A DNA stretch of 64,000 nt from contig JAUSEW010000002.1 in NCBI GenBank assembly GCA_030651475.1, positions 83,927 to 147,926 on the forward strand. Direction: 5' to 3'. The notes below the pieces were generated by a model. That model was not told the origin of the DNA. It did not search any database and saw only the letters and a program-made list of their open reading frames with translations. Positions 1,910 to 38,154 of the stretch are shown here, in pieces. Within the stretch, counting starts at the first letter, position 1; the number at the start of each line of letters is the position of its first letter. The position numbers and the translations under genes are program-made. This DNA comes from Candidatus Levyibacteriota bacterium. Lineage in GTDB: Bacteria > Patescibacteriota > Microgenomatia > Levybacterales > UBA12049.

Positions 1910-2698
1910 TTGTGCTATGATATCAAGATGGAGGCGAAAATTATTTTTGAGGATGAGCAGATTTTGGTTTTGGATAAGCCGGCAGGGATGATTGTTAATC
2001 GGTCTGATACAACGAAAGGGGAGACAACTCTGCAGGATTTCGTGGAAAAACATTTAAACATTCCAACTCCGAAACCCCAAGCGAAAACGGAAGTTCAGGA
2101 TGGAGATTATGCTGCTCAAACAGAACAGAATTTTATTTCCAGATCGGGGATTGTGCATCGGCTGGATAAGGAGACTTCGGGAATTATTTTGGTTGCCAAA
2201 ACGCTTGGTGCTTTTATGAATTTACAAGCTCAATTTAAAGAGCGAAAAGTACAAAAAACCTATCTTGCACTTACTCATGGGAAAATAGAGCCAGAAGCAG
2301 GCGAAATAAATGTTGCAGTTGGACGGCTGCCTTGGAACAGAAAAAGATTTGGAGTTTTGTCAGGCGGACGAGAAGCAATAACGCGTTACCGCGTAATTTC
2401 AAATTTCAAATTTCAAATTTCAAATTCTCAAGAGGACTTGAGTTTGGTAGAGCTTAGTCCTAAGACGGGGAGGACGCATCAGATAAGAGTTCACTTGCAA
2501 TACATCAAACATCCTATTTTCGCTGATCCTTTATATGCCGGACGTAAAACATCAAGAAACGATAGGAAATTTTTGCCTCGGGTTTTCCTCCACGCCAGTA
2601 AAATTTCATTTTTCCACCCCGCAAGCGGAGAGTTACTCTCCTTAGAAAGTCCCTTACCCGACGAGCTAAAGAATTTTTTGTCTGCTCTTAAATCTTGA
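1910..2698 (+). CDS. RluA-family 23S rRNA/tRNA pseudouridine synthase
   Basis: It carries the HRLDKETSGIILVAK catalytic-Asp motif and the TGRTHQIRVH motif typical of the RluA/RluD family. The coding sequence contains an (AATTTCA)x4 tract at 2395-2422. Confidence 0.85.
   Translation: MCYDIKMEAKIIFEDEQILVLDKPAGMIVNRSDTTKGETTLQDFVEKHLNIPTPKPQAKTEVQDGDYAAQTEQNFISRSGIVHRLDKETSGIILVAKTLGAFMNLQAQFKERKVQKTYLALTHGKIEPEAGEINVAVGRLPWNRKRFGVLSGGREAITRYRVISNFKFQISNSQEDLSLVELSPKTGRTHQIRVHLQYIKHPIFADPLYAGRKTSRNDRKFLPRVFLHASKISFFHPASGELLSLESPLPDELKNFLSALKS
2395..2429. repeat. heptanucleotide tandem repeat (AATTTCA)x4 plus a degenerate fifth unit, inside the rluA coding sequence
   Basis: Four perfect 7-nt units read directly from the sequence. 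An identical 26-nt stretch occurs again at 28436-28463. Confidence 0.9.
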
Positions 2699-7260: not shown

Positions 7261-7777
7261 CTTCCTTATTTGAGGGATCGCAAACTGCTTCTAGCGAATA
7301 AAATACGAATGTCCGAATTGATGGTTTTTGAAGCTAAAACGATACGTTTAGGCTGATTTATCAATCTAAATTATGGTATAGGCAGATGCCCTCGGGGAGG
7401 GAGGCGTTAAAACGAAATTAAAAATTAAAAATGAAAAATTAAAAGCTAAGACAGCGGAGGACATAGGCTCTTATAAGACGGGAAACGAAATAGTCCTCTT
7501 CTGTTAAGGATTGGTCGAAAAAGGTTTTTGACGGGAAAATAGCACTGGAAGTAGAGGAAGTGATTACGTCGTACAATAATACTTTTACGACGTCAGCCAG
7601 CTTCAGTTATTCGGAGAAGTGGCCTAAACCTTGCCGAAATTTTCAATTTTTAATTCTCAATTTTCAATTACGCTACTTACTTCTCTTAATTTTGCGGCTT
7701 ATTTTTCTCCCAAAAAATGCCTATTTAATCCCCCACTATAGGGCTACATAGAGAAAATTTCATGAAGCTATTCGAAG

Positions 7778-8266
7778 CTATTCTTTAATCTTTCTTGCTA
7801 GTTTCGCTAATTTTTTATCATCAGCTCTTTTATGATCATGGGACGAAATGTAGCCTTCGTATTTTTCAAAGAATTTATCAATGCCGGAGCGAAAAGGTTT
7901 CCATTTGCCCATTTTGGTGCCGTGCATGGGGAAAAGTTTGGCATGAACATGATCTACGCCAAAACCCTCAAGAATCATGCCGGTTCTGCCAACGTTTTCT
8001 AGCTTCTTGTCTAACAATTTTCCTACTTTTTTGGCAGCAACAGCCAGATCTCTGAAAACTTTTTCCGGCAGATCGAATGCGTAGCTTGGGTAATGCCTTT
8101 TGGTCGTTATAACGGAGAAGCCTTCTGTATTTGGGAAAATTGACAGAAAAGCAAAATGGCTGGCATCCTCCCAAATTTTGTGACTCGGAGATTTACCGCT
8201 GACAATATCGCAAAAAATACACCCTTTCACATTTTGAATATAGCAAAATTGCCAAACTCTGTCCAA
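7778..8266 (-). CDS. HIT (histidine triad) family hydrolase
   Basis: It has the N-terminal CIFCDIV...HFAFLSIFP HIT fold signature and a GVDHVHAKLFP histidine-triad-like motif. Confidence 0.75.
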   Translation of the reverse strand: MDRVWQFCYIQNVKGCIFCDIVSGKSPSHKIWEDASHFAFLSIFPNTEGFSVITTKRHYPSYAFDLPEKVFRDLAVAAKKVGKLLDKKLENVGRTGMILEGFGVDHVHAKLFPMHGTKMGKWKPFRSGIDKFFEKYEGYISSHDHKRADDKKLAKLARKIKE

Positions 8267-21601: not shown

Positions 21602-23341
21602 ATGGAAGTAATGCCCAACGATGATTCTAAGTTTGTCACAGAGAATAAAACGCTTTTAGATGTTTTGCTTTCGGAACGTCTTATAACCCCGTCGCAATAC
21701 GAAGAAATAAAGGTAAAAAGCGCCAGTCAAGGATTATCTTTAGAGTCGGTGCTTGCGTCTTTAAATATAGTACCGGAAGAAAAAATAACAGAGGCCAAAG
21801 CGAAGCTTTTGGGTATTCCTTTTGTGACTTTGGAGGGAACATCATTTTCCCCTCAAGCTTTGGGCTTAATGCCAAGAGCCGTAGTTGAGCGCTTTTTTCT
21901 TGTGCCATTTTCTTACGACGAAAAAACGAAGACCCTTTCCATTGCGATGAGTAACCCGGTCGATTTGGAAGCAATTTCGTTCGTGCGCCAAAAAACAGGG
22001 CTTAATATAAAAGTTTTTGCGGCATCTTCAAAAGACGTAGAAAAAGCGATAAACGAGCAATATCGTCAGGAGCTGGTTGGAGAAGTTGGGGAAGCTTTAA
22101 AAGAAACGGAAAGTCTGCATAAAACTCAAACCATTGACAGCAAAAAAATAGCAGAAATTATCAAAGAAGCTCCGATTGCCAAAATCGTCTCGACAGTTTT
22201 GGAATATGCAGTTACCAGCCGCGCTTCCGATGTTCACATCGAACCTCAAGAAGATAGGGTTAGGGTTAGGTATAGAATCGATGGAATTCTTTATGACAGA
22301 TTGAGTCTTCCCAAAAATGTTCAGGAGGCAGTTGTGTCGCGGATTAAAATTTTGTCCGATATGAAAATAGACGAGCATCGTACTCCTCAAGACGGAAGGT
22401 TTAATTTCAAAGTTGCAGACAAAGAAGTAGATCTGCGTATTTCTGTTCTGCCAACAACCTTTGGAGAAAAAATCGTCATGAGGCTTCTTCGGAAATCCGG
22501 CGGAATACCTACTCTTCAAGAATTAGGCTTAATGGGAAGTTCTTTGAAGAATTTGGAAACTGCGATACTGCGGCCGCACGGAATTATTATTGTCTGCGGT
22601 CCAACCGGAAGCGGAAAAACAACCACTCTTTATTCTGTTTTGTCCAAGCTCAACACCACCAGAGTTAACATAGTGACACTTGAAGATCCCGTTGAATACC
22701 AAATGCCCGGAATTAACCAGGTGCAAATAAATCCGGGGGTAGGGCTTACTTTCGCAACCGGACTTAGAGCGTTTCTTCGCCAAGATCCCAATATTATACT
22801 GGTTGGAGAAATACGAGACTCGGAAACAACAGAACTGGCTATTCAGGCCGCGCTAACAGGACATTTAGTATTTTCAACTTTGCATACTTCAAACGCCAGC
22901 GGTGCTTTGCCTAGACTGATAGATTTAGGCGCCGAAAGGTTTTTGCTTTCCTCTACTCTGAACGCGGTTTTGGCGCAAAGAATAGTTAGGAAAATTTGCA
23001 CCAATTGCAAAGAAGAATATATTCCCCTGCCCCAAATAATTCAGGAAATTAAGAATGGGTTGGGCAATCTTTTTCCGGCAACAGGAGAAACTGTTAAGCT
23101 ATACAAAGGTAAGGGTTGTGATGAATGCGGAGGTTCGGGATACTTGGGAAGGATTGGTATTTTCGAAACGCTTCCTGTCTCGGAGAAAATGTCAACGCTT
23201 ATTTTGCAAAATGCCGATAGCAATTCCATAGAAAAAGAAGCGATTTCGGAGGGTATGATTGTTCTAAAACAAGATGGGTATCTCAAAGCTCTTCAGGGGA
23301 TAACCACAGTTGAAGAAGTGCTAAGGGTGGCGCAGGAATAG
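21602..23341 (+). CDS. pilB: type IV pilus assembly ATPase PilB (GspE family)
   Basis: N-terminal T2SSE_N domain, Walker A CGPTGSGKTTT, a His box, and the tetracysteine CTNC...CDEC motif. Confidence 0.9.
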   Translation: MEVMPNDDSKFVTENKTLLDVLLSERLITPSQYEEIKVKSASQGLSLESVLASLNIVPEEKITEAKAKLLGIPFVTLEGTSFSPQALGLMPRAVVERFFLVPFSYDEKTKTLSIAMSNPVDLEAISFVRQKTGLNIKVFAASSKDVEKAINEQYRQELVGEVGEALKETESLHKTQTIDSKKIAEIIKEAPIAKIVSTVLEYAVTSRASDVHIEPQEDRVRVRYRIDGILYDRLSLPKNVQEAVVSRIKILSDMKIDEHRTPQDGRFNFKVADKEVDLRISVLPTTFGEKIVMRLLRKSGGIPTLQELGLMGSSLKNLETAILRPHGIIIVCGPTGSGKTTTLYSVLSKLNTTRVNIVTLEDPVEYQMPGINQVQINPGVGLTFATGLRAFLRQDPNIILVGEIRDSETTELAIQAALTGHLVFSTLHTSNASGALPRLIDLGAERFLLSSTLNAVLAQRIVRKICTNCKEEYIPLPQIIQEIKNGLGNLFPATGETVKLYKGKGCDECGGSGYLGRIGIFETLPVSEKMSTLILQNADSNSIEKEAISEGMIVLKQDGYLKALQGITTVEEVLRVAQE

Positions 23342-23342
23342 T

Positions 23343-24410
23343 ATGGAAATACAAGAATTATTAAATTTAACAATTCAAAATAAAGCATCGGATCTGCATT
23401 TGCTGGCAGGTATTGTTCCGACAATACGTGTTGACGGCTCATTGGTATTCTTGCCGAATTACCCGGCAGTAACCAAAGAAGATGCGGAGCGAATGATATT
23501 TTCCATACTTACGCCATCCCAAAAAGAACTTTTGCTGGCGAATAAGGAATTGGACTTTTCCTTTGGATTCGGCGGAGGGACTTATGGCAATTTAGGCAGA
23601 TTTAGGGTTAATTTGTATTTTCAAAGAGGAATTCTTAGCGGGGCATTTCGTTTTCTGGAACCAAACATCAAGACAATTGATGATCTTCATTTGCCAAAAA
23701 TCGCTCACAATTTTGCTGCACTCAAGCAAGGATTTATTCTGGTTACAGGTCCGACAGGTCAGGGGAAATCAACAACTTTGGCGGCAATTATCAACGAAAT
23801 AAATGCCAATAAAGCAAACCATATTCTGACGATAGAAGATCCGATAGAATATATCTATCCAAGCGGAAAAAGCATTATTTCCCAACGTGAGATGGGTTCC
23901 GATACCCACTCCTGGGGAATGGCTCTAAAATCCGCGTTAAGAGAAGATCCGGATGTGGTTTTGGTCGGAGAAATGAGAGATCCCGAAACTATCTCATCCG
24001 CGATTACGGTGGCGGAAACAGGACACTTGGTGTTTTCAACTTTGCATACAAATTCTGCTTCCCAAACAATAGACAGAATTATTGATTCTTTTCCTTCCAG
24101 TCAGCAAACTCAAATAAAAATTCAGCTGGCATCAACCCTTAAAGGCATTATCTCCCAGCGTTTAGTCCCCATGATAAATGGCGGAAGAGTGCCTGCGGTT
24201 GAAATACTGATCGGTACTCCTGCGGTTGCCAACAATATCAGGGAAGGAAAAACACATTTGATTGATTCGATAATACAAACGTCTTCGGATGAAGGAATGA
24301 TTACTTTGGAGTCTTCGCTGGCTTCTCTAGTTCTGGCAGGCAGCATCAGCCTTGAGACCGCAAAGGAATATGCTCTGCATCAAGACGATCTTTTGCGTCT
24401 TGTTGGTTAA
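23343..24410 (+). CDS. pilT: type IV pilus retraction ATPase PilT
   Basis: GPTGQGKSTT Walker A, HLVFSTLHT motif, ~355 aa. Confidence 0.9.
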   Translation: MEIQELLNLTIQNKASDLHLLAGIVPTIRVDGSLVFLPNYPAVTKEDAERMIFSILTPSQKELLLANKELDFSFGFGGGTYGNLGRFRVNLYFQRGILSGAFRFLEPNIKTIDDLHLPKIAHNFAALKQGFILVTGPTGQGKSTTLAAIINEINANKANHILTIEDPIEYIYPSGKSIISQREMGSDTHSWGMALKSALREDPDVVLVGEMRDPETISSAITVAETGHLVFSTLHTNSASQTIDRIIDSFPSSQQTQIKIQLASTLKGIISQRLVPMINGGRVPAVEILIGTPAVANNIREGKTHLIDSIIQTSSDEGMITLESSLASLVLAGSISLETAKEYALHQDDLLRLVG

Positions 24411-24413
24411 CTT

Positions 24414-25622
24414 ATGAGATTATTGTATCAAGCTGTAACTAGAGAAGGGAAAAAAGTCAGAGGAGTAATTAATGCCAACGATACTAATGAGGCGACAGCC
24501 TATCTTCGCAGCAAGAATTTCATCCCGATAAGCATTTCCAAGGAAAGCAAAAGTAAATTTTTAGACGCTCTTCCCATGTTTTCCCAAAAAATTACCGCTT
24601 CGGATTTAGTGATTTTTACCAGACAATTATCTTCAATGCTGACAGCAGGGCTTACTCTGATTAAATCTTTGGAAATTCTTAAGGAGCAGTTGGAGAAAGA
24701 GGCGATGATAGAAATTGTCGATAATATAATTACCGATATAGAGGAAGGGTCAACTTTTTCCTCTGCAATTGCCAAATATCCGCAGGTTTTTTCATCGATA
24801 TACGTTTCTCTTATAAAAGCGTCCGAAACATCCGGACTTTTGGATAGATCCCTTTTGAGGCTTGCCGATAATTTGGAAAAACAGCAAAAATTAAAAGGGA
24901 CCATCAGATCCGCTCTGATGTACCCAATTATAGTTATAATTTTGATGGTTGTGGTAGTTGCGATTATGATGGTTTTTGTTATTCCCCAGCTGTCTGTCTT
25001 GTATAATGATCTGAATATTCCTTTGCCTTTGCCTACGCAAATAATCGTGAGTCTTTCCAACTTCGTTATAATTTTCTGGCCTGTTATATTGGCAGCAATA
25101 GTATTGAGCGTATTTTTTTACAAGCGTTGGCACAAAACAGAAAACGGACAGCTGATTATTGATAATTTGCTTCTCAAACTTCCGGTTTTTGGTGTTCTTA
25201 TCAGGAAAACAATTCTTGTGGAATTTTCAAGAACTTTGGGGTTAATGATAGGAACAGGAAGCTTGGTTGTGGAGTCTTTGATAAAAACATCAGACATAAG
25301 CGGAAATATTCATTATAAAAATGCGATTTTGGATGTTGCCAGGAGAGTGGAAAAAGGAGTAACTGTCGGAGATGCAATGGCAGCTTATACTTTATTCCCG
25401 CCGGTTCTTGTTCAGCTGGTGAAAATCGGGGAACAGACAGGAAAGCTTGATGAAACTCTGATTAGAGCGTCTGAATATTTTGAAGGGGAAGTAAATGAGA
25501 CTGTTAAAGCCTTAACAACCGCGCTTGAGCCATTCATTATGGTAGTTTTGGGAATCGGCGTTGCCTTTTTAATTATTTCCGTCATAACACCAATTTACAG
25601 CTTAACCTCGTCTATTCAATGA
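24414..25622 (+). CDS. pilC: type IV pilus platform protein PilC (GspF family)
   Basis: 402 aa with two GspF repeats and three TM segments. Confidence 0.9.
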   Translation: MRLLYQAVTREGKKVRGVINANDTNEATAYLRSKNFIPISISKESKSKFLDALPMFSQKITASDLVIFTRQLSSMLTAGLTLIKSLEILKEQLEKEAMIEIVDNIITDIEEGSTFSSAIAKYPQVFSSIYVSLIKASETSGLLDRSLLRLADNLEKQQKLKGTIRSALMYPIIVIILMVVVVAIMMVFVIPQLSVLYNDLNIPLPLPTQIIVSLSNFVIIFWPVILAAIVLSVFFYKRWHKTENGQLIIDNLLLKLPVFGVLIRKTILVEFSRTLGLMIGTGSLVVESLIKTSDISGNIHYKNAILDVARRVEKGVTVGDAMAAYTLFPPVLVQLVKIGEQTGKLDETLIRASEYFEGEVNETVKALTTALEPFIMVVLGIGVAFLIISVITPIYSLTSSIQ

Positions 25623-25689
25623 TTGCTATTCTACTTTGCCCCCTTGACAAGGAAAATATAATGTGTTCTACTAAATATATAGGCAAATA

Positions 25690-26286
25690 ATGAAAAGAAT
25701 TTATAACAAGCTTTTTTCTTTCGGTTCTAAGGGTTTTACTCTAATTGAGCTACTTGTGGTTATAGGTATCCTAGGCATTCTTGCTTCAGCTCTTATCGCT
25801 ACCATTGACCCCTTCGAACAGCTCAAGAAAGCAACAGATGCAAAAATAAAAAATATTACCGTAGAGTTCCAGACAGCGTTGGTAAGGTATTACACAACAC
25901 ATGGTAAATTCCCTTGGAATGATCAAGCTAGCATAGATAACAATACTAATCCGGCTTGTACGGCGCTTAGTTCAGCTGTGATATCAGGTCAAAAACTTAA
26001 CGTTGCAGCAGTAAAATCATGTATTGATAATGCAGGTGGTGCAAGCTTGATTGCAGAGGGAGAGCTAAAAAGTTCATTCACGTCTAGCGTAGATGATCTT
26101 GGCCAAGTGTATCTCACTTGGGATCCGGCCAATGCCACAAATGCAGTTATTTGCTTCAGTCCAACATCAAAATCTCAAAAAGGCGCTCCGGATACGAAAT
26201 GGACAGATGCACAGGGAGCCACAACCGGAGCAACTTGTCCAAGTTCAACAGCAGCAGACAATGTATGTTTCTGGTGCACACAGTAA
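25690..26286 (+). CDS. type IV (major) pilin, PilA-like
   Basis: Class III signal peptide KGFTLIELLVVIGILGILAS with Glu+5, and C-terminal Cys pairs. Confidence 0.8.
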   Translation: MKRIYNKLFSFGSKGFTLIELLVVIGILGILASALIATIDPFEQLKKATDAKIKNITVEFQTALVRYYTTHGKFPWNDQASIDNNTNPACTALSSAVISGQKLNVAAVKSCIDNAGGASLIAEGELKSSFTSSVDDLGQVYLTWDPANATNAVICFSPTSKSQKGAPDTKWTDAQGATTGATCPSSTAADNVCFWCTQ

Positions 26287-26347
26287 ACTTCATATATCCT
26301 CTTAAATAAATAATTTGCTATACTAAATTAAACTTTGATTTTATTGG

Positions 26348-27136
26348 ATGAATAGCTTATTCGCTTTTTATATTTTTGTCATCGGTTTATTTATCGGGTC
26401 GTTTTTAAATGTCTTAATCGATAGGATTCCCAAAAGAAATTTATTCCGAAAGAAAAGGTCGTATTGCGACTCGTGCAAGAAAACTCTCAAATGGTATGAT
26501 TTAATTCCTGTTTTTTCATTTATTTTTTTGCAAGGAAAATGCCGTTATTGCCGCTTCCCTATTTCACTTTATTACCCTATCGTTGAGTTGATTACGGCGT
26601 CTTTATTTGTACTGACGTTTAATTTTATTTCTTCAGGCGGAATAATGAATCAAGAATTAAGAATCATGGACGCAATAGGACTAGTATATTACCTATTTAT
26701 AATTTCTTCTTTCATCGTTGTTTTTTTTACAGACTTAAAATATGGAATTATTCCGGATAAAGTTTTATTGGCCGCAATTTCGCTTTCTATTTTTTACTTA
26801 TTCTTTATTCACAATTCATTATTCATGATTCATCTTTTGTCTGGCGTTGGAGCGTTTTTATTATTCTTACTGTTGCACTTAATTACCAGAGGTAAAGGGA
26901 TGGGATTTGGAGATGTAAAGCTTGTTTTCTTGATTGGTCTTTTTTTGGGCATTCTTAATGCAATTCTAGCTTTATACTTAGCATTCTTGACAGGGGCTGT
27001 GGTTGGGCTCATACTAATTTTATGGGGAAAAAGAAAGTTTTTTGGGGGGAAAATTCCCTTCGGTCCGTTTTTGGTTTTGGGAACATTTATAAGTTTATTT
27101 TTGGGAGAAAAAATAATCAAGGTTTTACTCTGGTAG
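26348..27136 (+). CDS. pilD: prepilin peptidase / N-methyltransferase PilD (A24 family)
   Basis: N-terminal CDSC...CRYC zinc-binding tetracysteine and a GMGFGDVKL catalytic-Asp region. Polytopic. Confidence 0.85.
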   Translation: MNSLFAFYIFVIGLFIGSFLNVLIDRIPKRNLFRKKRSYCDSCKKTLKWYDLIPVFSFIFLQGKCRYCRFPISLYYPIVELITASLFVLTFNFISSGGIMNQELRIMDAIGLVYYLFIISSFIVVFFTDLKYGIIPDKVLLAAISLSIFYLFFIHNSLFMIHLLSGVGAFLLFLLLHLITRGKGMGFGDVKLVFLIGLFLGILNAILALYLAFLTGAVVGLILILWGKRKFFGGKIPFGPFLVLGTFISLFLGEKIIKVLLW

Positions 27137-27891
27137 AGCTTGTTGTTGTGCTGGTAATTTTGGCAGTTCTTGGAGGCATAAGCCTAACCCTACTTAATCC
27201 TAAGAAATATATTGATCAGGCAAAGGATGCGAAAAGAGCTCATGATTTAACTCAAATTCAGAGCGCGCTGGATACGTATTATAATGATTACAATTATTAT
27301 CCTACGTTATTAAGTCAATTAAACAACGATCCGACTAAAATTTATATGAAAGATATTCCTACGGATCCGGATACAGGTTTTTTTTATCCTTATGAAATTA
27401 ATGTTGATGAAACTCTTCCGCAATGGAACATACTATTTGCAAAAGTTTCTACGAAGTCAAACATGCGGTCGGCTTGTCCGTTAGATCAGTTTTCTGACTC
27501 CGGTTGCATACCACCAAACTATGACTCTTCATATATCTGTGTTTTATCAGGGAAAATTGATTGCGATTATGTTAAAGCCGCAATAGTTCTGCCGCCCATA
27601 GTTCCAACTGGCGCTCCAACTTCAATACCAACGCTTAATCCTACGCCCACTACTCCTTTTGGCGGTCCGACAAATACTCCGACTCCGACCGGATTCTTAA
27701 CGCCAACTCCAACAGGCACACTTAACCCAACTCCAACGTCTATTTTTACTCCAACGCCCACATTTCCTCCGCCTCCCACACCTACTCCTACCCCTTGTTC
27801 TAAGGATTGGGCTTGTAGGCCAGGATGCAATAATGTGCCAGCGAATACCGGAGATTTTTGCTCACCGACTTGTAATGGAGCTTGCCAATGA
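27022..27891 (+). CDS. pilin-like protein with a Pro/Thr-rich linker and a Cys-rich C-terminal knot (start uncertain; ORF overlaps the pilD 3' end by 115 nt)
   Basis: GFTLVELVVVLVILAVL prepilin motif at codon 34, then a (PTxT)n linker PTPTTPFGGPTNTPTPTGFLTPTPTGTLNPTPT...PPPPTPTPTPC, then CSKDWACRPGCNNVPANTGDFCSPTCNGAC. Confidence 0.6.
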   Translation: MGKKKVFWGENSLRSVFGFGNIYKFIFGRKNNQGFTLVELVVVLVILAVLGGISLTLLNPKKYIDQAKDAKRAHDLTQIQSALDTYYNDYNYYPTLLSQLNNDPTKIYMKDIPTDPDTGFFYPYEINVDETLPQWNILFAKVSTKSNMRSACPLDQFSDSGCIPPNYDSSYICVLSGKIDCDYVKAAIVLPPIVPTGAPTSIPTLNPTPTTPFGGPTNTPTPTGFLTPTPTGTLNPTPTSIFTPTPTFPPPPTPTPTPCSKDWACRPGCNNVPANTGDFCSPTCNGACQ

Positions 27892-28424
27892 GAACAAAAA
27901 AAGGTTTTACTCTTATAGAGCTGATTGTTGTTATAGGTATTTTGGCTGTGTTGGCAAGTGCTTTGATAGCTATCTTTAATCCGTTTACGCAGTTTCAGAA
28001 AGCCAACGATGCCAAAAGGAAATCCGATCTTTCTCAAATCCAAAAAAGCCTGGAAGTTTATTATCAGGATAATGGCAGATATCCTTCGAATACAGCAAAT
28101 TACGGAAGTGGCATAGCCGATTATCAGATTATTAGCCAGGATGCAAACGATCCTGTAAAAGAATGGGGTACTTCTTGGCAGCCATATATAAATATTTTAC
28201 CCAAAGATCCAAATAGTGCAAAACGATATGTATACTATGTTTCGCCTGCAAGCAATGGACAAGGTTATTATTTGTATGCTAGTCTGGATAGAGCAGGCAA
28301 AGATCCGCAGGCATGCAATACTTCAGGAACGGATTGCGTAAATGTCCCGGCTCCTATGTCTTGCGGATATAACAATGACTATAATTGCAATTATGGAATA
28401 TCAAGTCCGAATTTAAGCCCATGA
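27882..28424 (+). CDS. type IV pilin-like protein
   Basis: MPMRTKK|GFTLIELIVVIGILAVLAS class III signal. Confidence 0.7.
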   Translation: MPMRTKKGFTLIELIVVIGILAVLASALIAIFNPFTQFQKANDAKRKSDLSQIQKSLEVYYQDNGRYPSNTANYGSGIADYQIISQDANDPVKEWGTSWQPYINILPKDPNSAKRYVYYVSPASNGQGYYLYASLDRAGKDPQACNTSGTDCVNVPAPMSCGYNNDYNCNYGISSPNLSP

Positions 28425-28894
28425 CAACAATTTTAAATTTCAAATTTCAAATTTCAAATTCGAAGAGGGGGTTTACTTTGATAGAACTCTTGATTGTAGT
28501 TTCTATTATCGGAGTATTGGCAACTTTGCTGATGACAAATTTTATAGGCATCAGACAGCGTGCAAGGGACGCCCAACGCAAAGGAGATCTCAAGCAGATT
28601 CAATCATCGCTTGAGCTTTACAGAGCAGATCAAGGAAGTTATCCCGCATCTCCTTTAGCAGCATGTGGAGTATCGAAACTTGAGGGAGGGAATCCCCCGG
28701 TTACATATATGCAAAAAATTCCATGCGATCCATTAAATGTCGCACCATATGCATATACCTATCTTTTAAACGGCGATGGTACATATAGCATACATTCATG
28801 TTTAGAAAACGTAAGTGATTCACAGAAAGACGCAGTAAATAGTAGCCCTTGTGATGGAACAAATAATTGGTCTTTTACAGTTCAAAATCCATGA
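28421..28894 (+). CDS. type IV pilin-like protein with an (AATTTCA)n tract in its leader (alternative start 28385)
   Basis: MTTILNFKFQISNSKR|GFTLIELLIVVSIIGVLAT. The leader is encoded by the heptanucleotide repeat. Confidence 0.65.
   Translation: MTTILNFKFQISNSKRGFTLIELLIVVSIIGVLATLLMTNFIGIRQRARDAQRKGDLKQIQSSLELYRADQGSYPASPLAACGVSKLEGGNPPVTYMQKIPCDPLNVAPYAYTYLLNGDGTYSIHSCLENVSDSQKDAVNSSPCDGTNNWSFTVQNP
28436..28463. repeat. heptanucleotide tandem repeat (AATTTCA)x3 plus a degenerate unit, between the pilin ATG and the prepilin cleavage site
   Basis: Read from the sequence. Shares an identical 26-mer with 2395-2429. Confidence 0.9.
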
Positions 28895-29382
28895 AAAATT
28901 ATGGTTTTACTCTTATTGAGCTTATCGTTGCGTTTTCCGTAATAGCTTTATTGTCAACAGTTGGAATAGCATCTTTCGTAAGCTACAGCCGTAATCAAGC
29001 TCTTGTCGTAAGCGCTAAAGATTTGGTAAATACTCTTAATCTTGCGAAATCCCGCAGTCTGTCTCAAGTTCTGGAGCCTTCGCAGTGTTCAGGACAGAGT
29101 CTTATCGGTTACGAAGTCAGATTGTGCGGTCTTCTAACATCAAGCTGTCCTCCGCTAGCAGACTATAGTTACGAACTAAACGTAGTATGCTCGGGAATTA
29201 TCGTTCCGCCGATAGAAACAAAAAAGTTACCACCCGGTGTTAGTTTTGATAATGCAACTCAAACTACATCGTTTCTCTTCCCAATTCTAACAGGCGGAGT
29301 GAAGGGCAGCGGGGCAATTGTTTTATCGGGATATGGACAAACAAAAACAGTCACAGTTAGTAATTCCGGTGTTATCCAATGA
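28891..29382 (+). CDS. minor pilin / pseudopilin
   Basis: MKNY|GFTLIELIVAFSVIALLST. Confidence 0.6.
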   Translation: MKNYGFTLIELIVAFSVIALLSTVGIASFVSYSRNQALVVSAKDLVNTLNLAKSRSLSQVLEPSQCSGQSLIGYEVRLCGLLTSSCPPLADYSYELNVVCSGIIVPPIETKKLPPGVSFDNATQTTSFLFPILTGGVKGSGAIVLSGYGQTKTVTVSNSGVIQ

Positions 29383-29870
29383 AAATAAAAAAGCTACTTT
29401 TCAACAGGTACGAACGCGGGCAGACTTTAATTGAAGTTTTAGTTGCTTTGGGCGCGGCAGTGGCAGTTCTTTTTGGCATAACAGTTGCGGTTATCTCCTC
29501 GCTTAATAATGCGCAGTTTACTCAAAATCAAAATCTAGCTAATAAATATGCTTCGCAGGGAATGGAAATCGTAAGACAGCTTAGGGATTCCAGCTCTTCC
29601 GGTCTTTCCCAGTATTCAAATACTTACTATTGTTTGGGTCAGGATGGAGAATTAAAGGCGAAAGGCTTGGGGTGCGGACAAAACGTGGGAGTTTTTGTAC
29701 GGGAAGTTAATTTGGATCAAAATTCTTCTTCATGCGGCGAAACCGGTGTTTTGTCAACAGTATTAGTTTCATGGTCAGATAGTGCTTGCGCAAACATTTC
29801 CAATCCCTATTGTCACCAAGTGAAATTAATTTCCTGTTTTTCTAATCCTGCTACAATATCAGCACCATGA
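29379..29870 (+). CDS. pseudopilin (GspI/PilV-like)
   Basis: ERGQTLIEVLVALGAAVAVL N-terminal hydrophobic helix with Glu+5. Confidence 0.55.
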   Translation: MKIKKLLFNRYERGQTLIEVLVALGAAVAVLFGITVAVISSLNNAQFTQNQNLANKYASQGMEIVRQLRDSSSSGLSQYSNTYYCLGQDGELKAKGLGCGQNVGVFVREVNLDQNSSSCGETGVLSTVLVSWSDSACANISNPYCHQVKLISCFSNPATISAP

Positions 29871-30430
29871 GAAAAAATAATAGGGGTTTTACTCTCGTAG
29901 AGCTTTTGGCTGTTTCTGCGGTTATGGTTGTAGTTAGCGTCATAGTAACGGCTACGATAACGTCTTCTCTTCGCGGAACTACCAAGACGAATACGATTAA
30001 TGATGTCAGGCAAAACGGCAATTATGCAATTGCTCAAGTTTCAAAAATGATTGAATACGCCAAAAGTTTTGGCGGAGTTAGCAATGATTATAATGGACCT
30101 TTCGATTCAAACTGTACTAACTTAACGCCTCCCTTAACTCCAACACCTACGCCCTCACAGTTTAGCTATATTAAGATAACAGGATTTGACAATGGACAAA
30201 CAATTTTTGGCTGTTCTTCGACAATTGCGTCCAATAGCGCATCTTTGATAGACACTAATTTAGTTTCCGTAGATTCATGCTCATTTACATGCGAGCGCGC
30301 AAGGATTACTGATTCTCCAATCATTGGAATAAACTTTTCTCTTAGCAAGAAAACAACCAGTAGTTTATTCGAGAACAAGGCTTTCGTCCCATTTAAAACC
30401 TCGGTTAAAATGAGAAATTTAAGTAATTAA
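29867..30430 (+). CDS. minor pilin
   Basis: MRKNNR|GFTLVELLAVSAVMVVVS. Confidence 0.6.
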   Translation: MRKNNRGFTLVELLAVSAVMVVVSVIVTATITSSLRGTTKTNTINDVRQNGNYAIAQVSKMIEYAKSFGGVSNDYNGPFDSNCTNLTPPLTPTPTPSQFSYIKITGFDNGQTIFGCSSTIASNSASLIDTNLVSVDSCSFTCERARITDSPIIGINFSLSKKTTSSLFENKAFVPFKTSVKMRNLSN

Positions 30431-30477
30431 GGTACGTTTTGTTGACAACTGGATTTAACAGCTGTTATTCTTAAAAT

Positions 30478-31263
30478 ATGCACAAAAACGAAAAAGGACA
30501 AATACTTCTTATAGTAGTTTTAGTAATGATAGTTTCTCTGACCGTGGGTTTGTCTGTTGCTTCAAGAAGCATTACAAACTTACGTACTTCAACAGAAGAG
30601 GTTAGTTCCCAAAAAGCCTTAGCTGCAGCTGAAGCAGGAATTGAGCAGTCCATATTATCAAATGCTTCTATAGCAAGCGGTGAAATTTACATAGGCACTA
30701 CATATTCAACAACCGTTACGGAAGTTAAGGGAACAAGCTTTTTGGTTAAGGGGGGGAATACGATTGCGCAGGATGAGGGAGCAGATATTTGGCTATCAGA
30801 TTATTCTAAAGATTCTGCCAAACTATATTTAAATCCCTGGAACGGCAATCTGACAATTTACTGGGGAAATTCTTCGGACTCTTGTTCAAATCCCGCTTTG
30901 GAAATAGTTATTGTTTCCGGGACGAAAATTTCTCCGAAGATTAACCGTTATGCATTCGATCCGTGTTCTTCGCGAGCAAGTAATAATCATTTTACCCCGG
31001 CGTTATCAGGCGGAAGTGTTGAAGGTGTGAATTTTTCATCCTCAACTCCTCCTATTAGTATTGCATCAGGATTAATTGCCAAAATTATTCCTCTTTACTC
31101 GTCAGGACAGATAGGAGTTGTTGGGGATGTTGCTTTACCTTCTCAAGGTTTTATTACTGACTCAACCGGTAAATCCGGTAATACTGTTAAAAAAATTAAT
31201 GCTTTTCAAGGTTATCCGCAGCTTTCGGCACAATATTTTTCCTATGGCCTTTTCTCGCATTAA
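30478..31263 (+). CDS. PilX-like minor pilin
   Basis: KGQILLIVVLVMIVSLTVGLSVASRS N-terminal segment resembling the PilX N-terminal domain. Confidence 0.5.
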   Translation: MHKNEKGQILLIVVLVMIVSLTVGLSVASRSITNLRTSTEEVSSQKALAAAEAGIEQSILSNASIASGEIYIGTTYSTTVTEVKGTSFLVKGGNTIAQDEGADIWLSDYSKDSAKLYLNPWNGNLTIYWGNSSDSCSNPALEIVIVSGTKISPKINRYAFDPCSSRASNNHFTPALSGGSVEGVNFSSSTPPISIASGLIAKIIPLYSSGQIGVVGDVALPSQGFITDSTGKSGNTVKKINAFQGYPQLSAQYFSYGLFSH

Positions 31264-31274
31264 TAGAATAAATT

Positions 31275-32330
31275 ATGAGTAATTCATCTTTTGGATTAGA
31301 CATCGGAGTAACCAATACCAGAGCCGTCTGGTTGGATTACGCAAAGGAGGGATTTTTATTAAAGGCATCTGCTATTGCCCCTACTCCTCCCAAAAGCGTT
31401 CTTTCCGAGTCCCCCTTGGATCAGGAAGAAATGGCTCAAGCTATAAGAAACGTTGTAGATAAAGCCAAAATAACAGTAAGAAACGTTAATATAGCATTTC
31501 CGGAAAATCAGGTCTATACGAAAGTTATAGATATGCCGGTTCTTTCCGATAAAGAGCTTGCATTTGGCATATATTGGGAGGCGGAGCAATATATTCCTGT
31601 GCCTCTTTCCACAATAACTTTGGTTTGGAGCGTCTTAAAAAAACCGCAAAAGATAGAGGTAGGATCAACAGAGAAAATGCAGGTTCTGATGGTAGGGGCG
31701 CCAACGGCGCTTATAAATAAATATCAAAAAATACTCTCAATGGCCGGGCTGAATATCGTGTCAATTGAAACGGAGATATTGTCTGCAATAAGAGCTCTAG
31801 TTCCCTTCAAAGCAAATGTAAATATTGTTCCGCCTACAACAGTGATAATTAGTATCGGAGCAGTTAGCACCTCTCTCGCAATTATAAAAGAAGGGATATT
31901 GGTTTTTACGTATTCTATACCAATAGGAGGAATAGCAATCAACCGAGCCATCGAGTCTGATTTCGGACTAACTTTGCCCCAAGCAGAAGAATATAAGAAA
32001 ACCTACGGTTTTTCCAAAGAAGGCGTCGGAGGAAAAATTGGGAAATCTATAGAACCTATTCTGACTTCGATTGCGGCAGAGGTAAAAAAATCTTTAGCGT
32101 TTTATGCGCAAAAATACAATAATCAATCCCCTATTCAGCAGATCTTGCTTTCAGGAGGAACGGCGAAACTACCAGGAATCGATCTTTTCTTTGCGCAAGA
32201 TACAGGTATAGAAACTGCTATCGGCAATCCCTGGAAAGTTTTAACAAGTCAGGAAGTACCTAAAGATATAATAGACCAAGCTTCCGATTATTCGGTAGCC
32301 GTAGGTTTGGCTATGAAGGGCTATGATTAA
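31275..32330 (+). CDS. pilM: type IV pilus assembly protein PilM (actin-like ATPase fold)
   Basis: FGLDIGVTNTRAVWL N-terminal phosphate-1 motif. 351 aa in the conserved pilMNO position. Confidence 0.85.
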   Translation: MSNSSFGLDIGVTNTRAVWLDYAKEGFLLKASAIAPTPPKSVLSESPLDQEEMAQAIRNVVDKAKITVRNVNIAFPENQVYTKVIDMPVLSDKELAFGIYWEAEQYIPVPLSTITLVWSVLKKPQKIEVGSTEKMQVLMVGAPTALINKYQKILSMAGLNIVSIETEILSAIRALVPFKANVNIVPPTTVIISIGAVSTSLAIIKEGILVFTYSIPIGGIAINRAIESDFGLTLPQAEEYKKTYGFSKEGVGGKIGKSIEPILTSIAAEVKKSLAFYAQKYNNQSPIQQILLSGGTAKLPGIDLFFAQDTGIETAIGNPWKVLTSQEVPKDIIDQASDYSVAVGLAMKGYD

Positions 32331-32856
32331 CGACATTAATCTTCTGGTAGGAAAGGACGCTAACTATTTACGGCAGAAAAAATTACTGTCGTTGGTAAGG
32401 CTAATGGCATTTGCTTCATTAGGAATAGTTGCTTTACTTTCGGTAATTGCTTTTTTTCTAAATAGCCAATTCTCCCCGACCGAAGTCAAAAAGGAAGAAG
32501 ACGTAATTCTGCAGAATCTTTCCACACTTAGCAAAAAACAAGCAAAACTTTTTATAATAAACAACAGAATTCAGAACATTACAACGATATTAAATAGCAG
32601 GGTGGATTATTATAAAATTTTGAATTTTATTATAGGTAAGATTCCGGCAGAAGTTTCCATAGATAGGATAGAGGTTGATAAGAAAAAGATTTCACTGACG
32701 ATATCTTCCAATTCTTTAATCCCGATAAATACATTAATTAACAATTTCGTAGATATGGTAAGAAAAAAAGAAACAATTACTTCGTTAACGCTTAATTCCT
32801 TAACCTTGAGCGTAAAGACAAGTAAATATTCAATCTCTTTAGATGCGAGTTTATAA
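32323..32856 (+). CDS. pilN: PilN-like bitopic pilus assembly protein
   Basis: N-terminal INLL motif followed by one TM helix. The gene overlaps pilM. Confidence 0.65.
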   Translation: MINDINLLVGKDANYLRQKKLLSLVRLMAFASLGIVALLSVIAFFLNSQFSPTEVKKEEDVILQNLSTLSKKQAKLFIINNRIQNITTILNSRVDYYKILNFIIGKIPAEVSIDRIEVDKKKISLTISSNSLIPINTLINNFVDMVRKKETITSLTLNSLTLSVKTSKYSISLDASL

Positions 32857-32859
32857 ATT

Positions 32860-33570
32860 ATGAATAATAAAGTAAATATCGACGCTGACACTCTAAAATT
32901 TCTCTACACAAAATATAAAGAATTTCTGGTTCCGGTAATGGTAATGATTGTCTCTATAATTCTTCTGATCGTGTTTGTAGTTCCTCAATTCCTAATTTTT
33001 TTATCAAATATAGATACAATGAAAACAGAAAACTCCAAACTTTCCGTATTAAAAAATAATTTAAATATTATTACAAGCGCTAACGATTCAATTCTGGATT
33101 CGCAGCTAAAAATTACAAGTGCAGCTTTACCCTTAACTAAAGATTATACGGGAATACTAAACGCGCTCGCTACCTCCTCAAGGATATCGGGAGCGTCTTT
33201 AGGGACTTTTGAGTTTCAGGTTGGGGACGTATCTCAAACACAACAAAATCAATCCGGTTTCCCATTTCTAAAAATGACGTTAAATGTAGGCGGAGATATG
33301 AAAACTATTAACAATTTTATTAATTCACTTTCGCAAACACTTCCCTTATCCGAAATTACAGGAGTAATTATCAATAATGACTTTTCAACTATCAACCTTT
33401 CTTTTTACTACAAACCTGTTCCCGCTAATGCTATCAGTAATAATTTACCTATTAATGCAGTTTCGAAAGAAGGTTTTAATCTAATTAGCAAGCTGTCTTC
33501 ATTTAGCAATTCTTCTGTGAGTTTGCCTTTATATAATGCGTCTCCAAGTAGCAGAACTAATCCTTTTTAG
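32860..33570 (+). CDS. pilO: PilO-like bitopic pilus assembly protein
   Basis: Single TM helix and its position after pilN. Confidence 0.5.
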   Translation: MNNKVNIDADTLKFLYTKYKEFLVPVMVMIVSIILLIVFVVPQFLIFLSNIDTMKTENSKLSVLKNNLNIITSANDSILDSQLKITSAALPLTKDYTGILNALATSSRISGASLGTFEFQVGDVSQTQQNQSGFPFLKMTLNVGGDMKTINNFINSLSQTLPLSEITGVIINNDFSTINLSFYYKPVPANAISNNLPINAVSKEGFNLISKLSSFSNSSVSLPLYNASPSSRTNPF

Positions 33571-34249
33571 ACGGTTTTCTTAGAAGATCAGGGCGAAGCT
33601 TTTTAGTAATTTTCAGCGATTGATTCTTTCTCCAATTATCAATTTCCGCATGATTGCCCGAAAGAAGTACTTTTGGAACCGTCAATTTTTTATATTCTTG
33701 CGGTCTAGTGTATTGAGGATATTCGAGATAATCGGAAAAAGATTCCGTATCGGTAACGCCTTTCTTAAGAACTCCAGGTAATAGCCTAATCACGGTATCC
33801 GCCACAAGCATTACGGGAATTTCTCCTCCGGTAACGATAAAGTCCCCGATTGAAATTTTCTCGTCGATAAATTTTTCTATTCTTTCATCTACTCCTTCGT
33901 AATGTCCGCAGACAAGAATTAAATGCTTAAGTTTGGATAATTGTTCTGCTTTTTTCTGATTAAGGGTTTTGCCGTGCGGATCAAGAAGAATTACTTTCTG
34001 CTCATCCTTTTTTAGTGTTTTATTCTTAGCGTTTTCTATTGCTTTTGCCAAAACATCAACCCTTATCACCATTCCCAATCCCCCACCGTAAGGCTTATCG
34101 TCAACGCTTTTATGCTTCCCGATTCCGTAATCCCGAATATCGACAAAATTTATTTTGACCTTTTTTTCCGCAATTGCATTTTTGATAATTGAGTAAGCAA
34201 AAGGAGAACTAAACATTTCGGGGAATAAAGTAAGAATTGAGATAGTCAT
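33557..34249 (-). CDS. trmD: tRNA (guanine37-N1)-methyltransferase
   Basis: MTISILTLFPEMF N-terminus and SPOUT-fold motifs (GGGLGMV..., GHYEGVDERI). Confidence 0.9.
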   Translation of the reverse strand: MTISILTLFPEMFSSPFAYSIIKNAIAEKKVKINFVDIRDYGIGKHKSVDDKPYGGGLGMVIRVDVLAKAIENAKNKTLKKDEQKVILLDPHGKTLNQKKAEQLSKLKHLILVCGHYEGVDERIEKFIDEKISIGDFIVTGGEIPVMLVADTVIRLLPGVLKKGVTDTESFSDYLEYPQYTRPQEYKKLTVPKVLLSGNHAEIDNWRKNQSLKITKKLRPDLLRKPSKKD

Positions 34250-35988: not shown

Positions 35989-38154
35989 TTAGTCGGGAGA
36001 TATTGTTTTGTTTTTAGCGCTTAAGATTTTCGCCAGAAGCAGCGGATATGCATCTAGTTTGGGGAAGATTTTTTCTGCTTCTTTTTTGGCCTTTTCAATT
36101 AAGGCAAAATCCGAAAAACTGGCTATTTTAAGCAAGGGTTGTCCGTGCTGCATAGTGCCGTATAATTCCCCATGGCCTCTTAATTTTAAATCCAGTTGGG
36201 CAAGTTCGTTGCCCAAAGACAAGGTTTCCATAGCTTTTAATCTTTCAACAGTTTTTGGATTTTTTGATTGAGTGAATAACAAACAATATGCTTGAGCATC
36301 GCTTCTTCCTACTCTTCCGCGCAGCTGATGCAATTGGGCAAGTCCGAAGCGTTCGGCTTCCTCAATGAGAATGATATTGGCATTTGGAATATCAATTCCA
36401 ACTTCTACAACTGGCGTTGCTACCAGAATATCTAATTTTCTATCCTTAAATTTCTTAAGTACTTCTTCTTTTTCTTTTGCCTTTAACCTGCCATGCAAAA
36501 TACCTAATTTCAAGTTCGGAAAAACAGTATTTTTAAGCAGTTCATATTCCTTAGTTGCTGCCCTGACGGTTTTTAGAGTTTCGGATTCTTCTATAAAAGG
36601 GCAAATGATAAAAGCTTGCATTTTTGTATTTTTGATTTGTTTCTCAATCCATAAATAAGCATTTTTTCTTTTTTCCGCAGGAACAAGCCAAGTTTTTGTC
36701 TTTCTTCTTCCTTTCGGCATTTCGTCCAAGAAAGACAGGTCCAGATCTCCATACATAGTTAAAGCAATAGTTCTTGGTATTGGCGTTGCAGTCATAGAAA
36801 GAAGATGGGGATTTTTGCCTTTTTTTCTGATTATTGCTCTTTGCTCCACTCCGAAACGTTGCTGTTCATCAATTACAACCAAGCCCAATTTGTCCATGCT
36901 CCTTTTGTCGTATAGCAATGCGTGTGTTCCAACTAATATATCAGTCTTGTCTTTTGAATCATGAATCACGAATTGTGAATTATGGTTTGTCTCGTTCTTT
37001 ATCTTTATTCCTGATTCTTTATTCATAATTCTTTTCCTCGTAGATCCTGTTACTAAGCCTACTTTTACGTCAAATGGAGAAAGAAGTTTGGAAATAGTGT
37101 CGTAATGCTGCTGCGCCAGGATTTCCGTAGGCGCCAGAAGAACAGATTGAAAACCGTTTAAGAACGCTACGTACATGGTAATTGCAGAAACTACAGTTTT
37201 ACCGCTTCCCACATCTCCTTGCAAAAGTCTGTTCATTGGTTTCGTAGACGCAATATCTGCAAAAATTTCTCTTAACGTTCGTTTTTGGGCATTGGTTAAT
37301 ACAAATGGCAGTTTGGCATAAAATTTATCTATCTTATCTTGGTATAAATCTATTTTGAAAGGGTTACCGGCTAAATTTTGCTTCCACTCTTTTCTTCTGC
37401 TTAATGCGCCAATCTGCATAAGAAAAAGCTCGTCGAAAGATAAACGAAGCCTTGCTTTTTCTGCCAAATCCAAATTTTTAGGAAAATGAATTTCTTTAAT
37501 TGCCTTAGGGAACCCTAGCATTTGATTATCCGAAATTATTGAGTAAGGAAGATACTCGAATAGTTTATGTCTGCAATCACTAATTATTTTATTAACTTGA
37601 CGGCGTAACCACTTAGAAGAAATACCTCTTGTTTCCGGATATATCGGAACCAATCTCCCCGTGTGAATGGTTTCATCTTTGTAGTTTAGCAGTATTTCGT
37701 ATTCAGGCGATTGCAGCAGCAGTTTATTTCTATAAATATCGGCTTTGCCGGAAACAGAGATCTTGTCTTCCTCTTTCATTAAATTTAATAAAAATGGCTG
37801 GTTAAACCAGATAATATCTAATTCTCCTGTTCTGTCTTTCATTCTTGCTTTTTGCAGTGTTTTCCAATTTCTCGTGCGTTGGTTCTTAATTTCCAGAACC
37901 TCGCCTTTTACAGTAACTGTTTCTCCTGCTTGGATATTGGCGATACTTGAGATTATTGAAAAATCTTCATACCTGGAAGGAACGTGATAAAGAAAATCTT
38001 CCAAGGTTTTAATGCCAAGCTTCTCTAGTCTTTTGGCGTACATTGTGTAGGCTTTGGAAACTTCCCTAACCGGCGTTTTTAATTCCATACACTGTCTAAA
38101 GGGCAAGGAATGGAAGAATGGATGTCGCAATAAGCGCAATGGAAGCAATAGCAA
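35989..38154 (-). CDS. recG: ATP-dependent DNA helicase RecG
   Basis: N-terminal wedge domain, QGDVGSGKT Walker A, DEQQRFG, TATPIPRT, and QLRGRVGR motif VI. Confidence 0.9.
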   Translation of the reverse strand: MLLLPLRLLRHPFFHSLPFRQCMELKTPVREVSKAYTMYAKRLEKLGIKTLEDFLYHVPSRYEDFSIISSIANIQAGETVTVKGEVLEIKNQRTRNWKTLQKARMKDRTGELDIIWFNQPFLLNLMKEEDKISVSGKADIYRNKLLLQSPEYEILLNYKDETIHTGRLVPIYPETRGISSKWLRRQVNKIISDCRHKLFEYLPYSIISDNQMLGFPKAIKEIHFPKNLDLAEKARLRLSFDELFLMQIGALSRRKEWKQNLAGNPFKIDLYQDKIDKFYAKLPFVLTNAQKRTLREIFADIASTKPMNRLLQGDVGSGKTVVSAITMYVAFLNGFQSVLLAPTEILAQQHYDTISKLLSPFDVKVGLVTGSTRKRIMNKESGIKIKNETNHNSQFVIHDSKDKTDILVGTHALLYDKRSMDKLGLVVIDEQQRFGVEQRAIIRKKGKNPHLLSMTATPIPRTIALTMYGDLDLSFLDEMPKGRRKTKTWLVPAEKRKNAYLWIEKQIKNTKMQAFIICPFIEESETLKTVRAATKEYELLKNTVFPNLKLGILHGRLKAKEKEEVLKKFKDRKLDILVATPVVEVGIDIPNANIILIEEAERFGLAQLHQLRGRVGRSDAQAYCLLFTQSKNPKTVERLKAMETLSLGNELAQLDLKLRGHGELYGTMQHGQPLLKIASFSDFALIEKAKKEAEKIFPKLDAYPLLLAKILSAKNKTISPD

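Follow-up and report, generated by a model that had tools for sequence, protein, structure and literature searches.

The window analysed here, a 64-kb stretch (64,000 nt) of contig JAUSEW010000002.1 from the metagenome-assembled genome of an uncultured Candidatus Levyibacteriota bacterium, a member of the Microgenomates in the Candidate Phyla Radiation (CPR) (assembly GCA_030651475.1, positions 83,927 to 147,926 of the forward strand), contains a pilus locus in which one prepilin gene carries a translated tract of heptanucleotide units shortly after its start codon. A second array of the same kind lies within a gene for an RluA-family pseudouridine synthase (rluA) in the same window (Table 1). 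The tract-bearing pilin is identical over its 157 aa to the NCBI protein MDO8620791.1 (P0001) from Candidatus Levybacteria; its stop codon occupies 28892-28894, and its reading frame is at present ON. Codons 4-14 read ATT TTA AAT TTC AAA TTT CAA ATT TCA AAT TCG, with AAATT cores at 7-nt spacing and in the same phase as those of the rluA array. The three perfect AAATTTC units, which have a degenerate unit to the left and AAATTC to the right, belong to a perfect period-7 run of 26 nt (28435-28460) and are the portion of the array most likely to slip. On its 3′ side the array is followed by AAG AGG and the G-1 codon GGG (28469-28471), after which FTLIEL begins. The features of a class III signal peptide are present, namely a leader ending in G, an FTLIEL-type N-methylation motif and a peptidase encoded in the locus. 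Downstream of the tract no further ATG, GTG or TTG precedes the cleavage site, so translation runs through the tract, which is then cut off as part of the leader. The original prediction, which placed a tract of 7-nt units between the pilin start and the prepilin cleavage site, was correct on this point, and the ATG at the head of the gene is the only usable start.

Table 1. Features of the tract-bearing prepilin gene, the rluA copy and the associated locus, in window coordinates.
Feature	Position	Strand	Basis or remark
Prepilin gene with tract, 157 aa	28421..28894	+	PF07963 N_methyl, PF08334 T2SSG
Leader peptide coding region, MTTILNFKFQISNSKRG, 17 codons	28421..28471	+	Direct reading; last codon G-1, then FTLIEL
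Pilin 33-nt heptamer array, five AAATT-type cores, first degenerate	28430..28462	+	Alignments
Three perfect AAATTTC units	28435..28455	+	Exact match in pattern search; codons 5-12 of 157
Start/stop overlap ATGA, tract pilin start with upstream pilin stop	28421..28424	+	ATG 28421-28423, TGA 28422-28424
Prepilin peptidase, would remove the repeat-encoded leader	26348..27136	+	PF06750, PF01478
RluA-family pseudouridine synthase gene with second array, 256 aa (P0123)	1928..2698	+	NCBI start 1928; PF00849; PDB relatives 11wx_A, 1xpi_A
rluA 33-nt array encoding ISNFKFQISNS	2396..2428	+	Direct reading; phase as in pilin copy

The start of the tract-bearing gene is one of a series of ATGA overlaps by which six consecutive pilin genes are joined (27888-27891, 28421-28424, 28891-28894, 29379-29382 and 29867-29870). 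Since no Shine-Dalgarno-like sequence is visible upstream of this ATG, and since it overlaps the preceding stop codon, initiation is probably achieved by translational coupling to the termination of the upstream pilin. The overlaps of the six genes suggest a termination-reinitiation chain, and a frameshift in one leader could therefore reduce the expression of the genes behind it. Besides the peptidase, the locus has genes for secretion ATPases, for a platform protein and for PilM, and its pilin-like genes number seven or eight; its earlier description as an eight-pilin locus holds roughly, the count being made up of seven clear prepilin N-termini and one weak PilX_N-like gene. The 289-aa pilin of the locus has its sole in-frame start 33 codons upstream of its cleavage site (window 27022-27136), and its leader is read, in a different frame, from the 3′ end of the peptidase gene, the two genes overlapping by 115 nt, as is also the case in the relative L212; one open reading frame (ORF) caller set the start of this pilin downstream of the cleavage motif (P0272). 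The peptidase gene itself contains two degenerate period-7 stretches in frame (26640-26670 and 26798-26833), encoding IMNQELRIM and FIHNSLFMIH.

Repeat period and reading frame

Strict arrays, defined as at least three copies with at most one mismatch and counted over the window, numbered three at period 7 against 0.04 expected. Periods 4, 5 and 8-12 were at chance, and period 6 gave two arrays against 0.34 expected; the specific excess of period 7 that characterises the heptanucleotide class of long simple sequence repeats (SSRs) is found in the window. Both the pilin and the rluA arrays were picked up by Tandem Repeats Finder (scores 65 and 57), and a search with the 21-mer at up to three mismatches returned nine overlapping matches in the window against 0.14 expected; lag-7 analysis of the window revealed no runs of intermediate length. 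The two arrays are equal in length and codon phase and differ at only two positions (31/33 identical). They share the identical 26-nt stretch of 7-nt units that had been predicted, AATTTCAAATTTCAAATTTCAAATTC, at 2402-2427 and 28436-28461.

The consequences of slippage were simulated by replacing the three perfect units of the pilin tract with 0-7 units. The pilin ATG was in frame with 0, 3 or 6 units, and the product was only 16-73 aa long with 1, 2, 4, 5 or 7 units. No in-frame ATG, GTG or TTG was available in the out-of-frame alleles, leaving ATT codons as the sole candidate starts. The prediction that gain or loss of one unit would frameshift the pilin is borne out by these results, and the same applies to two units. 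The anatomy of a contingency locus, a perfect tandem repeat in the 5′ part of an ORF with a unit length not divisible by 3, is likewise present. Given the simulation and an out-of-frame allele among strains of an orthologous pilin, frame switching is a sound mechanism for which nature offers a precedent.

Arrays in other pilin leaders, in rluA and in unrelated genes

The out-of-frame allele was found in a related lineage of the CPR, in which four ~96%-identical strains carry 5, 3, 2 and 2 cores in the leader of an orthologous pilin. The array has the form GAATT-GG-(AAATT-GG)n-AAATT-CC, and its 5-core and 2-core alleles are in frame. The 3-core allele of strain L202 is out of frame, with the ATG 34 nt before the G-1 codon, and its sole in-frame start is a TTG within the array. 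The (AAATTGG)n tract is the largest indel in the 6.5 kb aligned among the four strains. In L204 and L205, pilin leaders or the DNA next to them hold the strongest lag-7 arrays. The start-codon heptamer ATTTATG is duplicated in two of the four strains (L204:5994-6003; L203), giving two ATGs 7 nt apart in different frames, of which the first meets TAG after four codons.

Among 122 homologous leaders, 14 showed an identity run of at least three at an offset of 7 residues (21 nt, i.e. three units), whereas other offsets gave 0-2. The modal leader length of 17 residues is consistent with our own decomposition into a base of ~6 residues and an array of 11. The leader peptides include ISNFKFQISN, IGNWKLEIGN, IKNLKLKIKN, IIHHSSFIIH, NQESRIKN and DLRFKIYDLR, each derived from a different heptamer. 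As a negative control, none of 145 pilin N-termini of unrelated taxa contained a lag-7 array; these were taken from a generic pilin scan of metagenome contigs, in which relatives are distant (30-57% identical). Within clusters of 90% identity, the difference between leaders is exactly the 7 aa IGNWKLE in two clusters; elsewhere one leader stands in place of another, as in cluster 6, where the leader has been swapped wholesale between mature pilins more than 90% identical. Out-of-frame alleles accounted for 1 of the 36 members of eleven such clusters, a sample biased towards ON because it was retrieved through called ORFs. N-terminally truncated ORFs of a paralogous pilin family were considered as OFF alleles and rejected, P0306 proving to be an ORF-calling artefact with its leader intact and in frame.

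The rluA array (codons ATT TCA AAT TTC AAA TTT CAA ATT TCA AAT TCT) occupies a beta-hairpin between YRV and LVEL..GRTHQIR, where it forms an insertion of ~8 residues relative to solved structures. This loop is hypervariable across 119 RluA orthologs, and a heptamer-derived look recurs there at the peptide level. ISNFKFQISNS itself is found at the same loop in at least eight orthologs of 64-76% identity; the loops of others read IKNLKLKIKNS, ITNYKLLITN or INNLQLTINN, long inverted pairs are found in some orthologs, and others have a short ISNSQQDL. At the DNA level, the short allele GTA ATTTCAA ATTC TCAA and the long allele GTA (ATTTCAA)4 ATTC TCAA differ by exactly (ATTTCAA)3, and the 2-core (L207, L208) and 5-core (L209-L211) alleles come from the same samples and from syntenic contigs. 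Base for base, the long array equals that of the window, although the proteins are only 72% identical. Since orthologs hold the array at the same loop, in 2-core and 5-core alleles, it is an old resident of the loop, and neither a recent copy of the pilin tract nor a recent source of it. The original prediction took the rluA copy as the sign of a small mobile or copied sequence. This is not supported: orthologs share the site, the alleles differ by exactly three units, the copies lack inverted ends, a target duplication and common sequence outside the repeat, and (AAATTTC)3 is frequent in many phyla. A second hypervariable site lies near the RluA N-terminus (residues ~40-80), at which L207 and L209 carry the heptamer-derived SIFNFQFSI and KIRNPKSEIRNKSQIQNS...NSFEFRDSNFEF; the window RluA has no array at that site.

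Beyond these two genes, over 119 genome contigs carried (AAATTTC)3, with Acidobacteriota, Nitrospirota, Planctomycetota, Verrucomicrobiota, Bacteroidota, the CPR and other groups represented; it usually comprised 3-5 units and often stood beside other heptamer arrays. The arrays preferentially begin with AAATTTC and end with AAATT, i.e. core-(spacer-core)n, as expected for the product of slippage between two AAATT copies. Of the AT-rich heptamers checked by hand, few lack stop codons in every frame, and AAATTTC is one of them. In its reverse complement each frame contains TGA, which accounts for the forward orientation being the only one found inside ORFs. The sequence x-ISNFKFQISN-x was encoded in frame at no fewer than 13 CPR loci in unrelated proteins, which by sequence context only resemble LeuRS, MetRS, GatA, RecJ, RlmN and thioredoxin reductase. 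The contigs include L023, L031, L034, L057, L060 and L040 and represent different CPR phyla, and other reading phases of the cassette, NFKFQISNFK and FQISNFKFQ, also occur in those proteins.

Several further arrays were observed. In phyla outside the CPR, (AAATTTC)n reaches 8-11 units and adjoins AGATTTG, CAAATCC, CAATCTC and CTCATTT arrays, forming mosaic period-7 intergenic regions (L026, L077 from Kuenenia, L037, L084, L006, L020 and L053). In the window, the RecG gene (35989-38154) holds a degenerate composite heptamer array on the minus strand (36955-37034), in frame and encoding IMNKESGIKIKNETNHNSQFVIHDS, the DNA of which resembles an L212 pilin leader (L212:7990-8075) and a segment of the window prepilin peptidase gene. 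The non-coding gap at 7005-7777 contains two inverted arrays, (AAATTAA)4 and the complement of (AAATTGA)4, at 7414-7445 and 7637-7669; they flank ~190 nt of non-coding DNA in the manner of terminal inverted repeats, and a predicted fold pairs them, with a z of only -0.4. An Rfam search of the whole window, extended to E<=1 over 6950-7850, returned only four tRNAs.

Explanations for the tract

On balance, we lean towards regarding the tract as a heptanucleotide microsatellite at a permissive coding site, acting at most as a slow and incidental switch of the pilin. In its favour stand the excess of period 7 with no intermediate lag-7 runs, the simulated frame effects, the whole-unit alleles of the ~96%-identical strains, the IGNWKLE differences within clusters, the (ATTTCAA)3 step and the base-perfect array in RluA, the arrays of L204 and L205 set against the array-free N-termini of other taxa, the core-(spacer-core)n ends, and the published heptamer excess and neuO. 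The tract consists of AAATT cores separated by a 2-nt spacer, and such arrays would grow and shrink by slipped-strand mispairing. Within CPR genes they would persist only where the encoded peptide is unimportant, as in a cleaved leader or the RluA surface hairpin, and only at lengths that keep the frame, the states observed being 12 nt (2 cores) and 33 nt (5 cores). The two window copies would resemble one 33-nt cassette because the next in-frame state after a 12-nt seed is 12 + 21 = 33 nt. A slip of one or two units in the pilin would throw its sole ATG out of frame, abolishing the pilin, and would probably interrupt the ATGA termination-reinitiation chain that leads to the minor pilins downstream as well. 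Such an array would amount to a latent ON/OFF switch, probably flipping rarely. We infer three parts of this picture: that the arrays mutate by slippage, that the pilin tract switches at a low rate and that a frameshift there would have polar effects on the genes behind it.

The behaviour of the tract in relatives of this pilin weighs against that reading. Four lineages (L206, L002, L001 and L212) could be compared at the DNA level, and no variant of ±7 or ±14 nt was seen in any of them. L206, the sole extra contig from an anchor-gene hunt for further strains of the window lineage and the only extra assembly of the window population, is 100% identical over 11,184 nt, at window 22708-33891, and is linked to what appears to be the source read run, SRR13727527; coming from the same population, it is not independent. 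L002, which is ~83% identical overall, keeps the 33-nt array length despite three substitutions that break up the units, and this is the fixed length in a related strain that the original prediction had named as evidence against switching. In L001 (95-97% identical to L002) exactly the 33-nt array is missing, appearing as a 33-nt gap in the indel list, and the leader is MKTKKG. The closest syntenic relative, L212 (85-89% identical over ~15 kb), has a wholly different leader, MNQESRIKNIKKNNIIHKSRG, which is built from other heptamer arrays, and there the ATGA overlap is lacking. The changes in L001 and L212 are deletion or replacement events, not unit slippage. Two distant homologs, P0003 (MRIISNSRG) and P0096 (MIKISNSKRG), speak in favour of the microsatellite reading: their leaders resemble the window leader minus FKFQISN, i.e. 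minus three units, and look like a 2-core allele of it. Taken together, the turnover seen at the pilin tract consists of whole-tract loss, replacement or three-unit steps. L213 was uninformative owing to a scaffold gap over the region, and a locus-specific gapped pattern for ±1- and ±2-unit variants gave no matches among metagenome contigs.

The distribution of the arrays adds to these difficulties. Genes such as LeuRS, MetRS and GatA are essential in model bacteria, and with the cassette sitting in genes of this type, stepwise slippage through out-of-frame lengths should be lethal. Pure slippage also sits uneasily with the composite array GAATTATGAATCAAGAATCAAGAATTAAGAAT, which recurs in the L212 pilin leader, the window RecG and the window prepilin peptidase, with two neighbouring L212 pilins that have nearly the same leader, and with the lack of intermediates among the window array lengths. 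Because of the in-frame cassettes, the missing intermediates, the composite array and the shared L212 leaders, some copying between arrays, or events of 21 nt in a single step, are possible.

A dedicated contingency locus, in which the array would be selected for high-frequency ON/OFF switching of the tract pilin and the coupled downstream pilins and would so diversify the pilus, seems to us a doubtful explanation. It would account for an array whose unit is no multiple of 3 and which directly follows the ATG of a gene for a surface structure, for the fact that about a quarter of homologous leaders carry arrays, and for strain-level unit polymorphism that includes the out-of-frame L202 allele. 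It would also account for the concentration of strong arrays in leaders (one of three in the 64-kb window, together with those of L204 and L205), which make up <1% of the sequence, but mere tolerance predicts this enrichment equally, because the leader is cleaved off. N-terminal SSR enrichment has been treated as a signature of tuned phase variation, although it may reflect structural tolerance as well (Lin and Kussell, PMC3315296), and the same ambiguity applies equally to the window tract. The pilin tract has only three perfect units and keeps its length over a nucleotide divergence of ~17%. A single out-of-frame allele among the 36 cluster members, in a sample biased to ON, compares with 65.6% OFF in the phase-variable gene neuO (PMC13001214), and arrays just as perfect reside in rluA and further housekeeping genes, in which they cannot be there for switching. 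Of the ON/OFF contingency locus put forward in the original prediction, the frame logic stands, as does unit polymorphism in an orthologous pilin; for the pilin tract itself no ±1- or ±2-unit variant was seen in the lineages compared, and it has no more than its three perfect units. A broader proposal, which we likewise hold to be rather unlikely, is that Levybacteria and related CPR bacteria use heptamer arrays in cleaved pilin leaders as frame switches (2-core and 5-core alleles ON, 3-core and 4-core alleles OFF), with the same array family also colonising permissive in-frame sites in housekeeping genes by copying or expansion in single steps of 21 nt.

It is improbable that the tract is a copied or mobile cassette, i.e. 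that ready-made arrays of ~33 nt, and longer composite ones, would be pasted in frame at permissive sites by ectopic gene conversion, template switching or a mini-element, so that the pilin and rluA arrays would derive from a shared source and would have spread like the palindromic element insertions of Rickettsia. The near-identity of the two window copies (31/33, equal length and phase) agrees with such a history, but their size follows from frame quantisation (12 + 21 nt), and they are alike only in the repeat, apart from AAGAGG after an offset of 1-2 nt. The recurrence of x-ISNFKFQISN-x in frame in at least 13 unrelated CPR proteins points the same way, as do the recurring composite array, the leader shared by adjacent L212 pilins, the wholesale leader replacement in cluster 6 and the window's lack of intermediate lengths. 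The AAATTTC unit is, however, common in many phyla and stop-free in all frames, array ends obey the core-spacer-core logic of slippage, and the 2-core alleles present at matching positions of RluA and of related pilins fit the prediction of in-situ expansion. As a specific form of this idea, a transposable element of the miniature inverted-repeat type or other mobile element was rejected, the two copies having no inverted ends, target duplication or shared flanks, and the flanks of 120 genomic copies being unrelated.

A cis-acting signal, with phased AAATT cores serving as binding sites, as an unstructured AU-rich translation enhancer, as a hairpin or attenuator, or as a -1 frameshift site, is very improbable: arrays do start and finish with complete AAATT cores, the array is base-perfect across diverged RluA lineages, the first unit A_AAT_TTC stands in X_XXY_YYZ phase, and regulator binding has been proposed for TAACTGA repeats beside start codons (MacGregor 2015, PMC4679880), but there is no Rfam match, unit sequences vary freely between orthologous leaders, and arrays lie deep inside unrelated genes. 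A hairpin or attenuator was rejected on folding: the hairpin predicted from the AAATTT palindrome reaches just -3.3 kcal/mol (z = -0.9), its 136-nt context folded as RNA has z = -0.4, and neither improves on shuffled sequence. Programmed -1 frameshifting was rejected as well, since the slippery pattern is present but no significant stimulatory structure accompanies it and the shifted frames end after 16-73 codons.

Comparison with known systems and biological meaning

Heptamers are the most over-represented class of long SSRs in bacteria and have been ascribed to polymerase slippage, according to Mrazek (2007) as cited in PMC4679880 and PMC4692102. As far as these accounts describe them, the known heptanucleotide SSRs (those of Mrazek 2007, the cyanobacterial short tandemly repeated repetitive sequences, TAACTGA of Beggiatoaceae and GGGAATC of Xanthomonas) resemble the CPR arrays in having 2-6 units and a period-7 excess, and in being distributed widely and patchily with length variation between close relatives (PMC4679880, PMC4692102). 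In the same accounts they are mostly intergenic, whereas the CPR arrays are in frame within genes at permissive sites and quantised to 2 or 5 cores.

The closest functional precedent for the pilin tract is neuO of Escherichia coli K1, located on the CUS-3 prophage, which has (AAGACTC)n in its 5′ coding region and yields a full-length product only at copy numbers divisible by 3 (PMC13001214). Both are 7-nt translated repeats just after the start, with one of three copy-number classes productive, and slipped-strand mispairing, the mechanism of neuO, is also that proposed for the pilin tract (PMC13001214). In neuO, however, 3-53 copies occur, with heterogeneity within cultures and about two thirds of genomes OFF (65.6%; PMC13001214), whereas the pilin tract has 3-4 units and almost all of its alleles, as seen in assemblies only, are ON. 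The repeat-encoded peptide stays on the enzyme in neuO and would be removed by the prepilin peptidase in the pilin.

In two further systems an SSR is likewise placed where slippage can switch a pilus or adhesin protein or modulate it. The promoters of hmw1A and hmw2A in Haemophilus influenzae contain heptamers in 13-38 copies (PMC2651432). Both hmw1A/hmw2A and pilC differ from the pilin tract in belonging to host-adapted pathogens with experimentally shown switching, the one having a promoter repeat and the other a homopolymer. In Neisseria pilC, a poly-G tract lies in the signal-peptide coding region. Rickettsia palindromic elements are 100-150 bp long and have a conserved, non-repetitive palindromic sequence. 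Like the arrays described here, they are short and inserted in frame where many unrelated genes, essential ones included, tolerate them, whereas the CPR arrays are 33-nt simple repeats with no conserved flanks. In our literature searches we found no publication that ties the CPR or Patescibacteria to variation mediated by SSRs.

For annotation, the present results mean that repeat-encoded peptides such as ISNFKFQ, IGNWKLE and NQESRIK are not protein motifs. Even without switching, the arrays are a clean natural case of frame-quantised microsatellites inside genes. CPR bacteria need type IV pili for host contact and probably for DNA uptake. If the frame-switch reading is true, it would give the CPR its first described phase-variation system, located on the organelle that these episymbionts require to attach and to take up DNA. 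If leader arrays do switch pilins, metagenomic reads could reveal the pilus 'phasotypes' of these uncultured episymbionts.

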